A DNA stretch of 56,443 bases from Nanobdellota archaeon (GTDB lineage: Archaea; Nanobdellota; Nanobdellia; SCGC-AAA011-G17; JACPIM01), in the NCBI GenBank assembly GCA_038045665.1, contig JBBSXW010000007.1, positions 1 to 56,443 on the forward strand, written 5' to 3'. Every line of letters begins with the position of its first letter. The stretch's first letter is position 1. The notes under the pieces were generated by a model. That model was not told where the DNA came from, made no database searches, and saw only the letters and a list, made by a program, of their open reading frames with translations. The translations under genes were made by a program, and so were the position numbers. Positions 37,308 to 42,265 of the stretch are shown one piece after another.

Positions 37308-40300
37308 GTGTTTAATAAAAAGGTGGTGTGTTTGAGACTAAAATTTGGTGTTGCGAGACTTGGTATTCTTTTTCTTCTGATAGTCTTATCTTTTGTCATG
37401 ATTGGGTGTGTTCCTAGAGAGCCAGTTTTTATAGAAGCAAGTGCTGATGGTAGATGTACTACTATAAGTTTACCTGGATTATCAAGAAGCGGGAATGGCA
37501 TTTGCCAGAGAGAAGGCGGAGACTTCACGGTCTGTTCTGCAGAAAGACCTCCCCAATGTACTGGCATAAGCCAGATATGGAATATTGGGCAGTGTAGCAG
37601 GGAGCAAGATTGCACTAAACTCTTCAAGGGGGTTGATGTGGTTGTTACTTGTTGTTTGCCTGAAGGTGCACCGTCATTAATTGGAGAATGTAAAGAAAAG
37701 ACGATACCTAGTCAAGGAGTTCATAGCCCTAAATGGTTATGCGAAAACGTACAAAATGAAGATGGATTTACGATATGCGATAACAGTTATGATATACGGT
37801 GCGAATTGGGAGGGTTGTCTGAACTAGAGAAAGCAGCACGTGGTAGGGAATGTTTTGATCCGAAATGTAATACCGAGATTACTAGCGGGGTAGATGTTAC
37901 TGTTAGGTGCTGTAGGCCACCAGGAGAGCCAGCAATAGAGGCGCCAGAGCCAGAGGAACCTGGAAGTGGTGGAGCGGGTGTTACTACTATTTGTAGGTCT
38001 AGCGATTTAGGGTTTAATCCAAATTTAGAGTTTATAGATACAAATTGGGCTTGTTGTGTTGGGGAAAGATACCAAGGACAAAATGGTGGTTGGTGTTGCG
38101 ACGGCACACTAAAAAATAAATTGGAGATCAACTCTGATTTAATTGAAAATGATTTTTTAGGCGATGCGATATATACTTATAATGAGGACCAAAACGGGGC
38201 TATATATATTGCCTTATCTGGTCGGGATCCATTTGGTGAATATAGGCCTTATCCTGGCATAACCACTGAAAATGCAAATGAGTATACATTCAGTGGGCTC
38301 GATGAGAATAATCAGCTTGTTAGTGTTACAAGGAAACTGCTTTACTGCGAATCTCAATGTAAAATTTTTATTGGCAATGAAGTTGAAGATGCTATTGAAA
38401 GTGGAGAATGTGAGGGCGGAGCTGCTGGAAGTATCCTTGGAGAACCTCCTGAAGGATGCAGGATCTATGATTTTTCACAAGATTTAGGAATTAGAAGCTA
38501 TGTAGAAAATGGTAGAACAGGAATTGCGGCATGTGGTCTTAGTAACTCTGCTATAACTACTGGCGATCGGTTAAATCATACGGTATGCAGAAAAGCAGAA
38601 ATCAAATATGGAGATAAAGTTGCGGAAGTGGAATGTGGTGATAATATTTTTGATAGAGTTGATCCTCCAGATGCTATTTATAGCTTTAGAGCAATATGTT
38701 GTAGTCCTCCAGAAGTTTCCTATATTAACTGTCAAGAAGAATATGGAGAAGAATTTGCCTGCTATACTAATGAAGAGTGGGTAAATGCGGGTAGTCCGGA
38801 ACCTATACATGAAGTGGCTCCTGGATGTGATACTGGTAGCGAGAGTTTTGGTTATTGTGCTCCTTTAGTGGAGACTGGTGAGTTTATTAGAAGTCATGGT
38901 AGTGACCCAGATAGATGCGAGTTTGCTGAATTGAAATGGTTGACTCCTTCTGGAAAAGAAACTGAGGGAACATTTGGAAGCGGTGTTGGACAAAGACAAG
39001 GAGGGACTGGAAGCCAACAACCAGGACAAGAAGTAATTTTATTCGCTCTGATGGATTTGGATTGTAGCGAGGATAACGACATTAAATTCGATCTGAAAGA
39101 GGTTCGTGGAAGGGGACCATATCATTTAGAATATATAAATGCCGATTTTATCTTTAAAGACGGAGTGGTTTGGGCTAAGAAAACACTTGAATGGACAAAC
39201 TGGGAACTTGTATTTCAGAGTGTACAGAATCCTCAGTTTAGATTTAATCTAGTAAGTGATGGAAGACCTTCTCAATTATCGGATATTTTAACTGTTTTGA
39301 GGCCAACAGAAGAATGTGGTGATGGAAGAATAGATCCTGTAGAAGAAGCCTGTGATGACGGAAATACTGCTTCAGGCGATGGATGCAGCGCTAGTTGTCA
39401 AAAAGAGGAAGGATGGATATGCAATGGTGGGCCAAGTATTTGTAGTGAGAATTGTGGTGATGGGAAAATTGTTGGTGGTGAGAGATGTGATGATAGGAAT
39501 AAAGGAAATGGAGATGGGTGTAATGCAGACTGCAGGATAGAATCTGGATGGAGCTGTAGTGGAGAGCCTAGTGTTTGTCAAAAATGTGGTAATGGCATAA
39601 GAGAAGGGAATGAAGTTTGTGATGATGGAAATACTGCTCCTGGTGATGGGTGTTATGGTTGTGCTATAGAAGACGGCTGGAGTTGTATTGGGGATTTAGG
39701 TGAGCAGAGTGTTTGTACTGAAAACCTGGAGCCATGCCATATATTTAATGCACGATGGAGAAGTTCTAGCGGCGCTATATTAAATGATGGGGCTCATGTG
39801 ATTGGCACTGCAACAGAAGATGGTTATGTAGATGGAGCCCAAGTTTACTTATCTGTCGAAGGAGATGAAAGTTGTAGAGGCAGAACTGCTAAATTTACAA
39901 TTTATGAAGATGATTCTGGAGGGGAAACAAGCGAAGATATAGCTAACATTATAGATGGCGTGAGGTTTTTTGTTGGAGATACCATTATTATTGCATTTGA
40001 AGAATATTTCCCTGTTTGGTTTGATGAGAATCTGCCTCCTTGGGAAGGTGATGATGATCCTGAGTATTATTTTGTAGTTGAAACCGCTATTACAAATGAT
40101 GAACCTTTGATTTCTGGGAAGATTAATGTTGATAGACCTAGAGCTACCCAATGTAATGATGGAAGCGATAACGATGCGGATGGGTTGAGAGATTTGGATG
40201 ATCCTGGATGTTGGGATGAAAATGGAGAATACGATATTAATGACGATAATGAGGGAGATAGAAATCCGCAGTGTCAAGATGGCGATGATAATGATGATGA

Positions 40301-40394
40301 TGGATTAAAAGATTGGCCTGCTGATCCTGGATGCTGCGATGATCCTAGATATGGTAGATGCGATCATAGGGATAATAGCGAGGGTAGTGCCTAG
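37308..40394 (+). CDS. Giant secreted cysteine-rich repeat protein (lipobox-like signal, three CGDG...CDDGN...GDGC repeats, Asp-rich DNDxDG C-terminal repeats)
   Basis: The N-terminus is LGILFLLIVLSFVMIGC. Three modules end in CC[LRS]P. Three copies of CG[DN]G-x7-CDDGN-x3-GDGC-x-C-x3-GW-x-C match the myxococcal cysteine-rich repeat type. Two copies of C-x-DG-x-DND-x-DG-x2-D-x2-DPGC are present. The gene appears richer in G+C than its neighbours by eye. Confidence 0.8.
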   Translation: MFNKKVVCLRLKFGVARLGILFLLIVLSFVMIGCVPREPVFIEASADGRCTTISLPGLSRSGNGICQREGGDFTVCSAERPPQCTGISQIWNIGQCSREQDCTKLFKGVDVVVTCCLPEGAPSLIGECKEKTIPSQGVHSPKWLCENVQNEDGFTICDNSYDIRCELGGLSELEKAARGRECFDPKCNTEITSGVDVTVRCCRPPGEPAIEAPEPEEPGSGGAGVTTICRSSDLGFNPNLEFIDTNWACCVGERYQGQNGGWCCDGTLKNKLEINSDLIENDFLGDAIYTYNEDQNGAIYIALSGRDPFGEYRPYPGITTENANEYTFSGLDENNQLVSVTRKLLYCESQCKIFIGNEVEDAIESGECEGGAAGSILGEPPEGCRIYDFSQDLGIRSYVENGRTGIAACGLSNSAITTGDRLNHTVCRKAEIKYGDKVAEVECGDNIFDRVDPPDAIYSFRAICCSPPEVSYINCQEEYGEEFACYTNEEWVNAGSPEPIHEVAPGCDTGSESFGYCAPLVETGEFIRSHGSDPDRCEFAELKWLTPSGKETEGTFGSGVGQRQGGTGSQQPGQEVILFALMDLDCSEDNDIKFDLKEVRGRGPYHLEYINADFIFKDGVVWAKKTLEWTNWELVFQSVQNPQFRFNLVSDGRPSQLSDILTVLRPTEECGDGRIDPVEEACDDGNTASGDGCSASCQKEEGWICNGGPSICSENCGDGKIVGGERCDDRNKGNGDGCNADCRIESGWSCSGEPSVCQKCGNGIREGNEVCDDGNTAPGDGCYGCAIEDGWSCIGDLGEQSVCTENLEPCHIFNARWRSSSGAILNDGAHVIGTATEDGYVDGAQVYLSVEGDESCRGRTAKFTIYEDDSGGETSEDIANIIDGVRFFVGDTIIIAFEEYFPVWFDENLPPWEGDDDPEYYFVVETAITNDEPLISGKINVDRPRATQCNDGSDNDADGLRDLDDPGCWDENGEYDINDDNEGDRNPQCQDGDDNDDDGLKDWPADPGCCDDPRYGRCDHRDNSEGSA

Positions 40395-40405
40395 TATAAA
40401 GAGAA

Positions 40406-40648
40406 TTATTGTTGCCTTTTCTTCTTCTTAATTTTTATTTTTGGCGCATTTAGAATTTCAAGTATAAATTCTAATTCTTTGACTCGTGCCTGCAATTCAT
40501 TAATTTTCCTATCATAATTGTAGTGTTTATCTTTAACTCGTAAAAATGATACATTAGTTGCTTGTTTATGCTGTTTAAATTTCTCTACTAATATTTTAAA
40601 TGCTTCTGAACGAGCTAAAAACCAATCACCAATTGGAATATTAATCAC
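40406..40648 (-). CDS. Small coiled-coil protein with basic tail, unknown function
   Basis: 80-aa ORF ending in KIKIKKKKRQQ. Confidence 0.3.
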   Translation of the reverse strand: MINIPIGDWFLARSEAFKILVEKFKQHKQATNVSFLRVKDKHYNYDRKINELQARVKELEFILEILNAPKIKIKKKKRQQ

Positions 40649-40730
40649 CTCTTATTATTATATTTTTCAATAAACAGACTATATAAAATTTTTCATTATC
40701 TTTATATATCTGGTTTAATCTTTATTTAAT

Positions 40731-41801
40731 ATGAAAAAAAGAGGACAGGTTACGGTTTTTGTTATTTTGGGGATTGTTATAGTTGTTGCAGTTGTAATAT
40801 TAATATATTTGGCAGCAAGCAAGACAAGGACTGCTGAATCAGAGATTACTGCATCCCAAGTAGATATTGATAGTGCGATGAGAGAAGTTAATGAACTAGT
40901 CCATAGTTGCTTGGAAAAAATCGGTAAGGATGCGATTATTAGTGCTGCAACATATGGTGGATATGCGACTGTTACTACAGACATTTTCCATCCCGATAAT
41001 TGCTTTTCAGAGAACTATCGGCTCAAGAGAGTTGTATATAATGGGGCTGGAGATGACTGTTATCGAATTTCTTATGTATATCCGTGCGATGATAATCCGA
41101 GTAATTACTGTACTGGTGTTTTGGATGAACTAAAAACATCGCTAAGTGGTTCTGGTGATAGGGTAATAGAAAAGTGCCTTGAAAGATATGTAAATGTAGA
41201 ACTTGACCAGTGCACTAAAGATTTTCGAAGTATTCGATCTAATGGATGGGAAGTTGTCAATGATGTTGTGCCTTTAGGTTCGGATGGGACTGCGGAGCCA
41301 ACTAAATATTATAGAACAAATGTTGTTCTCGATCCTGATGGAGGAACATTTTTTAACCTGCAGATTCCGAGGCGATTTAGTAAAGGAACTGATTCTTTTG
41401 TTATCAGCGATTTTAATTATGAAAGTGTAACTAATTTTCATAAATTGATAGGAGATTTAGCTTACGACTTAGTAAAAAATTATGCACTTGACAATGGCAG
41501 GTTGAGACCTGAGGTTGAGAGATCGGCTCGCTATGCTAGTTTTAATCCGAGTGGCTTTACATTTATATATGGTCAATCAACCATAACGCTAGCTAAAATT
41601 TTCGGTATCTGGGATAATCGTGATCCTGATGTGAAACTTTATTTTATGTTTAGTATTAAGAATTTTCCGTGTCAACCTGGCCAGGATCCGGCCATTGATA
41701 AGTGTTGCATTTCGGATGTCACCAATAGTGCGACCTGCTACACTGAACAAGAGCTCATGCAAGTGCTAAATGAGGTAAGGAGAGAGTGCGTGGAAGAATG
41801 A
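40731..41801 (+). CDS. Protein with class III (type IV pilin-like) signal peptide
   Basis: MKKRGQVTVFVILGIVIVVAVVILIYLAA has a basic residue, Gly and Gln followed by a long hydrophobic helix. This fits an archaeal prepilin-peptidase site (G^Q). A large Cys-containing ectodomain follows. Confidence 0.5.
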   Translation: MKKRGQVTVFVILGIVIVVAVVILIYLAASKTRTAESEITASQVDIDSAMREVNELVHSCLEKIGKDAIISAATYGGYATVTTDIFHPDNCFSENYRLKRVVYNGAGDDCYRISYVYPCDDNPSNYCTGVLDELKTSLSGSGDRVIEKCLERYVNVELDQCTKDFRSIRSNGWEVVNDVVPLGSDGTAEPTKYYRTNVVLDPDGGTFFNLQIPRRFSKGTDSFVISDFNYESVTNFHKLIGDLAYDLVKNYALDNGRLRPEVERSARYASFNPSGFTFIYGQSTITLAKIFGIWDNRDPDVKLYFMFSIKNFPCQPGQDPAIDKCCISDVTNSATCYTEQELMQVLNEVRRECVEE

Positions 41802-42265
41802 AGAAGAAGTATATTTTACTTGTAATTGCCCTGGTTTTCATCGTTGGTAATGTAAATGCCTTGCTTTTTGAATGGATATTGGAAAGGAGAGGGGCTGGGC
41901 AAGATAATGATCGTCCACCAGTCCAAAACTGCAACAATGACGGAATCTGCGACATAGGCGAAGGAAATAATGATTGTCCTAATGATTGTCCTGTTGAAAG
42001 AACTACACAAACAATTCAGCCACCAAGAACGCAACAAAATTTACCTATAGACGGCGTTAATAATTTAGCAAACGATAGAAGCGACAATACTTTATTTAAT
42101 CTGGTAATTGCTGTTATAGCTTCGATATTTTTTATTGTTTTAGTAATAAGCTTGTGGTTATGGCTGCATAAAAGCAAACAAAAAGATATCGAGAAAAAGA
42201 AGAATAATGAAATGCAAAATGTATTTGGCTTGCCGCGAAGACCGCAAAGAAGATTTGGCGTTTAG
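41798..42265 (+). CDS. Secreted Cys-rich protein with C-terminal TM anchor
   Basis: The ATG at 41798 overlaps the upstream stop as ATGA. It has the signal MKKKYILLVIALVFIVGNVNA, the motif CNNDGICDIGEGNNDCPNDCP and the TM helix LVIAVIASIFFIVLVISLWLWL. Confidence 0.5.
   Translation: MKKKYILLVIALVFIVGNVNALLFEWILERRGAGQDNDRPPVQNCNNDGICDIGEGNNDCPNDCPVERTTQTIQPPRTQQNLPIDGVNNLANDRSDNTLFNLVIAVIASIFFIVLVISLWLWLHKSKQKDIEKKKNNEMQNVFGLPRRPQRRFGV

Follow-up and report, generated by a model that had tools for sequence, protein, structure and literature searches.

The gene at positions 37308..40394 on the forward strand of the window, by which we mean the whole 56,443-nucleotide contig JBBSXW010000007.1 of assembly GCA_038045665.1, encodes what is, as far as its sequence can be read, a large surface protein, exported and packed with disulfides, from a groundwater archaeon of Woesearchaeota type (DPANN) with a small genome. 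Our best reading, to which we give a probability of about 0.6, is that this protein is probably lipid-anchored, stabilised by disulfides and Ca2+, variable between strains and engaged in binding at the cell surface in the manner of an adhesin. What is new here is a set of apparently uncatalogued domains, combined with what looks like an unusually clear recombination mosaic. To our knowledge, the means by which DPANN archaea recognise and hold their partners are largely unknown, and we know of no adhesin validated for Woesearchaeota. The genome comprises 717 kb in 82 contigs, with 34.1% G+C and 78% completeness, and its nearest named relative is a Candidatus Woesearchaeota metagenome-assembled genome (MAG).

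The locus is a real gene, an uninterrupted open reading frame (ORF) of 1028 codons. The public gene call (P0002, 1023 amino acids) begins five codons downstream of 37308; since the GTG at 37308 aligns with an ATG in P0003, the orthologue of a near-identical strain, 37308 is the likely start. An N-terminal hydrophobic signal, several domain matches and 64 Cys (6.2% of the residues vs 1.2% in the long ORFs of the genome) bear out the preliminary description of this DNA, made from the letters alone, which had pictured a secreted, Cys-rich and modular protein. Gly, Asp, Glu and Pro are also enriched, and Lys, Ile and Leu are depleted. The number of Cys is even in each module (8, 8, 8, 6, 4, 2, 6+6+6, 2 and 6, giving 62 after Cys34), and the genome encodes two paralogous DsbA-like proteins (Thioredoxin_4) with an N-terminal transmembrane helix and a CPFC active site (G000:C6:2157-2648 and G000:C33:920-1363, both on the reverse strand); a search for VKOR in this 78%-complete genome gave no match. 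The even Cys count per module and the two membrane-anchored CPFC proteins make extracytoplasmic disulfides plausible, and we infer that the protein is disulfide-bonded. The full-length family has five members (P0001, P0003, P0004, P0122 and P0124), all other matches having single modules in common.

Export signal and modular architecture

The signal peptide (residues 1-34, 37308..37409; this and all following features of the gene lie on the forward strand) can be read directly as a basic stretch and, after it, a hydrophobic helix that closes in LSFVMIGC. The lipobox-like signal noted in the preliminary description is thus present. Helix and Cys are kept in P0003 and P0004, and Cys34 and the Gly before it are invariant in the three-way alignment of these orthologues. 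The pattern used for a lipobox was Leu, Val or Ile at -3, Ala, Ser, Thr, Val or Ile at -2, Gly, Ala or Ser at -1 and Cys at +1, at the end of the h-region of the signal peptide. The window protein ends in M-I-G-C, P0004 in L-G-G-C, P0122 in L-V-G-C and P0129 in L-I-G-C; lipobox-like G-C ends are found in P0122, P0125 and P0129 too, the more distant relatives reading LVGC, LFGC and LIGC. The protein is probably anchored to lipid through the signal-peptide Cys. A 320-amino-acid protein encoded upstream of the syntenic block in a related assembly (L019, 3395-4357) carries a canonical lipobox (LTIGC) together with an HEQGH metalloprotease motif, so that lipobox-type proteins do occur in the genus.

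Two modules of eight Cys each follow the signal. The first (CC-P module 1, residues 47-123, 37446..37676) ends in GVDVVVTCCLP and the second, its duplicate (CC-P module 2, residues 124-212, 37677..37943), in GVDVTVRCCRP, the common ending being G-V-D-V-x-V-x-C-C-x-P. Their mutual alignment scores 93 vs 29.8 +/- 5.8 in shuffled sequences (z = 10.8, reached in 0 of 500 shuffles), and all eight Cys, the CC pair and the Pro are invariant over six copies from five proteins. Module 2 is present only in the alleles of the window and of L001, and P0004 is without it. The two modules and their copies in four relatives define an uncatalogued eight-Cys domain; the preliminary description had said that they could be assigned to no known domain, and indeed no Pfam family matches them even at E <= 10. 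The same description counted three similar modules ending in CC followed by Leu, Arg or Ser and Pro. This holds for the first two, whereas the third candidate, FRAICCSPP, is rejected as a CC-P repeat, with z = 0.1 and 1.2 against modules 1 and 2. It lies within a variable insert (residues 384-474, 38457..38729) that is unlike either module; the insert is only 26% identical to P0003, where its CC-x-P lacks the Pro, and is missing as a whole from P0004.

Between the CC-P modules and this insert lies a further eight-Cys domain, here called mid1 (residues 229-383, 37992..38456), with the signature W-x-CC-x-GE ... CCDG ... NEY-x-FS ... LLYCE-x-QC ... GEC. It recurs with 37% identity in a 416-amino-acid paralogue of the sister genome (L009 859-2109, on G001:C29), which has a lipobox-like signal (LSLFGC) of its own. 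Since mid1 is all that this paralogue has in common with the target, the domain moves independently. P0129 has it as well, in combination with a lipobox and a matrixin-like protease domain. The insert is followed by a module of about 50 amino acids and four Cys (residues 475-520, 38730..38867), reading C-x-EEYG-x2-F-x-CYT-x-EEW ... PEP ... GCDTG ... GYCAP, which matches no Pfam family and goes unmentioned in the preliminary description. Single or in tandem, it recurs in P0123 (five copies), P0126, P0127, P0128 and P0130, the tandem arrangement occurring in unrelated small secreted proteins, and P0128 ends in a metalloprotease-like HExxH region. In P0126 (241 amino acids, metagenomic and eukaryote-like) it is flanked on either side by a Somatomedin-B domain (Pfam E = 3.4e-14), which hints at a module shared across domains of life. 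The reuse of mid1 and of the four-Cys module on secreted metalloprotease-like proteins is what would be expected of accessory binding modules. Next comes mid2 (residues 523-665, 38874..39302), with two Cys and beta-rich by a weak prediction, which is kept in all five family members.

Three tandem Cys-rich acidic repeats with six Cys each occupy 39309..39725. The preliminary description had placed three copies of a myxococcal type, CG[DN]G ... CDDGN, at about 39310..39725, and profile searches agree: TIGR02232 matches with E = 2.8e-31 and 107 bits (cut-off 20.8) in three stretches, at 39309-39422, 39447-39557 and 39579-39686, and Pfam DUF4215 with 43.4 bits (cut-off 27). Single repeats score 43.5-58.3 bits in a TIGR02232 scan of the genome. 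They fit a six-Cys pattern of about 40-45 amino acids, CG[DN]G ... CDDGN ... GDGC ... C ... C, and their alignment is invariant at C2, G3, G5, E12, C14, D15, D16, D23, G24, C25, C29, C37 and C44. In the PDB, the repeat profile finds chains of pappalysin-1 and -2 (residues ~866-910, E = 5e-12 to 5e-15). No part of the protein has a relative of known structure other than their single DUF4215-type repeat, solved in human entries such as 7UFG, 8A7D and 8SL1.

The C-terminal part begins with a two-Cys domain (residues 807-945, 39726..40142; ...FTIYEDD...YYF...) that is kept in the family, and closes in an acidic tail (residues 946-1028, 40143..40391). The tail contains, as already noticed from the letters, two copies of C-x-DG-x-DND-x-DG-x(5-7)-DPGC, which read QCNDGSDNDADGLRDLDDPGC and QCQDGDDNDDDGLKDWPADPGCC. 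The NCBIfam profile NF033662 (acid_disulf_rpt) recognises one stretch, residues 945-969, with E = 1.3e-5, the 24.8 bits falling short of its 41-bit cut-off; P0003, P0004 and P0122 are likewise sub-threshold, the orthologues scoring 21-25.6 bits. The suggestion of a MopE-like motif found no support, as Pfam Cu-binding_MopE, like every other Pfam family, gave no match for residues 807-1028 at E <= 10. By their DND-x-DG pattern, the repeats probably bind Ca2+.

Outside the repeats the protein is without described relatives in the collections searched. Pfam at E <= 10 gave no families for any of the non-repeat segments, NCBIfam at E <= 0.1 matched nothing in the whole protein beyond the two repeat regions, and a phmmer search of the whole protein against PDB sequences returned only insignificant matches (zinc fingers, teneurin and creatine kinase).

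A strain-level mosaic at a conserved locus

Three further assemblies carry the gene at the same place: one from Hainich groundwater (L001), one Woesearchaeota MAG (L002) and another assembly of the L002 type (L019). The order common to them and to the window is Toprim - PAC2 - DUF2065 protein - HExxH protein - the 1028-residue protein - orf80 - orf356 - orf159, continuing with RFC large - RFC small - tRNA-binding - MetRS - LemA - M48. A search of genome and metagenome contigs with a mid2 profile returned only the sister genome, its second assembly and one 2.6-kb fragment belonging to P0122, so that synteny can be checked only within the genus.

Against this stable background the gene itself is a patchwork. 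In 150-nucleotide windows, identity to L001 is 94-100% up to position 37850 and then falls to 51-78% as far as about 40250, the flanks standing at 97-100%; we take 37850..40250 as a strain-variable mosaic zone inside the gene. The breakpoints are sharp, divergence extending roughly over residues 185 to 980, and the zone encloses an island of 92% identity at 39501-39650, over repeats 2-3. After about 40250, identity is 83-95%, with a dip to ~70% in orf356 (41151-41450), and is back at 97-100% from 42051 on. At the protein level, the PAC2 protein is 99.6% identical to its counterpart in L001, the DUF2065 protein 99.2%, the HExxH protein 100% and RFC large 97.2%, with synonymous divergence (dS) of 0.084, 0.027, 0.021 and 0.055, respectively; the 1028-residue protein is 59% identical. 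Over residues 1-190 its dS is 0.03-0.13; over 191-715 and 807-1028 it begins at 1.2 and reaches saturation.

The affinities of the modules also differ along the protein. The CC-P module of the window is 99% identical to that of P0003, and the copy in P0124 (55%) is closer to it than that in P0004 (36%). By contrast, identity in mid2 is 83% with the distant P0004 vs 51% with P0003 of the near-identical strain, and in the C-terminal domain 68% vs 49%. Orthologues vary further in the presence or absence of module 2 and of the insert 384-474, and in the number of TIGR02232 repeats, three in the window vs about six or seven in the others. The simplest account of the mosaic is allelic replacement by homologous recombination at a conserved locus, together with gain and loss of modules.

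The variable region reaches beyond the gene, as orf80, orf356 and orf159 (40406-42265), which encode small secreted or membrane proteins, have raised dS to L001 (0.50, 0.55 and 0.23; flanks 0.02-0.08). On the other side, window positions 35001-35300, overlapping the start of the Toprim gene, show ~57% identity to L001 with many gaps, and identity is 97-100% from 35450 on. Concerning orf159 (41786-42265), its motif CNNDGICDIGEGNNDCPNDCP recurs nearly verbatim, as CNNDGTCDASFGENNEGCPNDCP, right after the CC-P module of the distant P0124.

Base composition and descent

The preliminary description held that the composition of the gene is unlike that of its neighbours and took this as a sign of horizontal acquisition. 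The first statement stands only in part. Gene G+C is 0.41 vs 0.34 for the genome (z = 2.1, in the top 2.5% of the 398 genome ORFs of at least 200 amino acids used as reference), but the excess is held by the first and second codon positions (G+C of 0.52 and 0.46), and at the third position the value of 0.25 is under the genome mean of 0.293 (z = -1.0). Synonymous choice, scored as a likelihood with the codon usage of the genome as reference, is typical (z = +0.8, more so than in 81% of the 398 ORFs); scored by segment, only the 34-codon signal peptide is low (-0.14), and the mature segments are unremarkable. The G+C excess arises because the amino-acid composition is rich in Cys (6.2 vs 1.2% in the genome), Gly (11.8 vs 6.5%) and Asp (9.0 vs 5.5%), which acts at codon positions 1 and 2; Lys is at 3.0 vs 8.9%. 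The comparison of G+C and codon usage that had been proposed as a check thus finds the gene native in composition, and the second statement, horizontal acquisition, falls, the excess being driven by amino acids and the gene being syntenic in relatives. More generally, when Cys/Gly/Asp-rich genes in AT-rich genomes show raised G+C, this is an effect of amino-acid composition and no sign of horizontal transfer.

The distribution of the parts gives a divided picture. Of 201 genomes sampled from the same archaeal order, 61 have TIGR02232 repeats (42 of 122 genera), mostly in large ORFs, and in this respect the preliminary description, which had named wide occurrence in related archaea as a mark of vertical inheritance, is answered in the affirmative; the N-terminal architecture, in contrast, is confined to the genus, as the survey of orthologues that it recommended makes clear. 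Searched against 1.84 billion representative proteins, residues 35-665 have only 12 matches (E <= 0.001), the sister genome is their only match among 60 relatives, and a second word-based homologue search with the same residues found nothing beyond the three known orthologues. The genome otherwise has a Cys-rich exported repertoire, as it encodes a second large secreted ORF (G000:C60:2858-6587, reverse strand) of 1242 amino acids, also with 64 Cys (5.2%), and at least a dozen further signal-peptide ORFs with 5-16% Cys.

Recent transfer of the gene, or of its DUF4215 part, from bacteria such as Myxococcota would explain the G+C of 0.41 vs 0.34, and the best non-orthologous database matches are indeed bacterial DUF4215 proteins (Minicystis, Myxococcota). 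These matches, however, align with no more than 11-20% of the query, and their many repeats account for their high rank. The third-position G+C and synonymous usage given above, with the excess at positions 1 and 2, the equivalent placement of the gene in L001, L002 and L019, the frequency of TIGR02232 in the order and the dozen or more other Cys-rich secreted ORFs of the genome all point the other way, and we regard such a transfer as very improbable. Given native third-position G+C and codon usage, conserved synteny and a repeat that is common in the order, recent horizontal acquisition is unsupported, and the gene is vertically inherited and native to its lineage. The TIGR02232 repeat itself may have had an ancient inter-domain origin or spread.

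Proposed surface binding, alternatives and known systems

In the adhesin-like reading, a very acidic, disulfide-stabilised modular protein would be exported by the Sec route and tethered to the membrane by a lipobox-type lipid anchor on the conserved Cys that closes its signal peptide. Nearest the membrane would stand the lineage-specific eight-Cys CC-P domain, duplicated in the window allele, then more Cys-knotted modules of small size, then the three DUF4215/TIGR02232 repeats as a short stalk, and at the C-terminus the Asp-rich tail with DND-x-DG repeats binding Ca2+. Recombination would gain, lose and exchange modules, giving deeply divergent alleles in strains that are otherwise 97-100% identical. 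The function would be binding, be it of a partner cell, of its envelope polymers or of a mineral or biofilm surface, with allelic variation tuning or diversifying specificity. A role in attachment to a host or surface is plausible and is indirectly strengthened by the hypervariability between strains. A further step, tentative and rather doubtful at present, would make the gene a recombination-driven specificity determinant, with co-occurring Woesearchaeales strains swapping cassettes of outer modules, also of the adjacent prepilin-like orf356, and the allele setting the partner cell or surface for attachment.

Several points weigh against this reading. Position -3 of the lipobox is a non-canonical Met, where the pattern calls for Leu, Val or Ile, and a crude regular-expression census found no second convincing lipobox ORF in the 78%-complete genome. 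Family statistics are thin, with only five members on which to judge conservation. The ratio of nonsynonymous to synonymous divergence (dN/dS) is below 1 throughout the divergent segments and dS is saturated, so that positive selection cannot be claimed, and the evidence reaches only to deep allelic divergence or recombination. The structure prediction advised in the preliminary description was carried out with AlphaFold2, but confidence was too poor for use, with a predicted local distance difference test score (pLDDT) of 30.7 for the full length (three-sequence alignment) and 49.2 for the CC-P module (five rows), and no inference from the fold is possible.

Both sequences are metagenome assemblies, which leads to the possibility that the hypervariability is artefactual, the contig of the window or of L001 being a chimeric assembly of co-existing populations, or else that it merely reflects relaxed constraint. 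We hold this to be distinctly unlikely: both alleles are unbroken ORFs with all module Cys conserved, dN/dS below 1 in the divergent parts indicates that constraint is kept, and mid2 and the C-terminal domain of the window are backed by 83% and 68% identity to P0004, assembled twice elsewhere (L002 and L019), while the identity island and the second dip, in orf356, form the patchwork typical of recombination. If the variability is real, it might still belong to a structural envelope protein, associated with an S-layer or matrix, which would gain rigidity from disulfides and Ca2+ bridges and bind no particular ligand, its variation serving escape from viruses or predators with this protein as their receptor. 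Such a protein would equally be predicted to have an export signal, high Cys and acidic Ca2+-type repeats, and pressure from phages or viruses would also be expected to make exposed proteins vary between strains. Yet the gene is single-copy and confined to the genus, occurring in 2 of 61 relatives, presence and absence of modules among orthologues would be unusual for a lattice-forming protein, and some modules are reused on secreted enzymes, all of which makes a purely structural role unlikely in our view. Under the binding reading, the gene is a concrete candidate for partner binding: it is the most divergent single gene between two near-identical strains, several of its small disulfide domains are in no database, and the alleles of the window, L001 and L002 provide a defined contrast.

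With regard to known systems, proteins with TIGR02232 (myxo_disulf_rpt) or DUF4215 (PF13948) repeats are known from Myxococcota, bacteria of the candidate phyla radiation (CPR), ciliates and diatoms, and typical members hold many more copies than three. The three six-Cys repeats of the window protein exceed both curated cut-offs and so place it beside them; unlike in those proteins, the repeats make up only ~14% of its length, and the other ~85% falls in no described family. With proteins of the NF033662 acidic double-disulfide type it shares the C-x-DG-x-DND-x-DG...DPGC repeat, twice and with E = 1.3e-5, but at 24.8 bits it stays below the curated 41. Other Ca2+-binding, Asp-rich Cys repeats are comparable in kind, namely the thrombospondin type-3-like repeats and the C-rich domain of teneurin (7PLP), whose match to the window protein is not significant (E = 0.26). 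A diatom adhesive-trail protein has 12 DUF4215 repeats (bioRxiv 10.1101/2023.03.06.531300).

Lipoproteins with a lipobox are known in archaea as substrates of AliA/AliB in Haloferax volcanii, and DPANN are predicted to be rich in lipoproteins (PMC12462473). The window protein resembles them in its N-terminal hydrophobic signal closing in I-G-C, with the Cys invariant in three orthologues, and departs from them in the Met at -3. Closest in overall character are the large Cys-rich extracellular proteins of the CPR Peribacteria, several of them very weakly similar to Myxococcus Cys-rich repeat proteins, which were proposed to serve attachment and whose variation between strains was named as a major contributor to genotypic variety (Anantharaman et al. 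2016, PMC4736985). Large size, a signal peptide, 5-7% Cys, Myxococcus-type repeats and strain variation are common to both. The window protein differs in having another set of domains, a probable lipobox-type N-terminal anchor instead of a C-terminal transmembrane segment or none, and a single gene instead of a 14-gene cluster, with the mosaic here resolved at the nucleotide level. Should the specificity reading be true, variable adhesins and receptor-binding proteins would be its functional analogues, built in this case of uncatalogued Cys-knot domains (CC-P, mid1 and the four-Cys CYT/GYCAP module).

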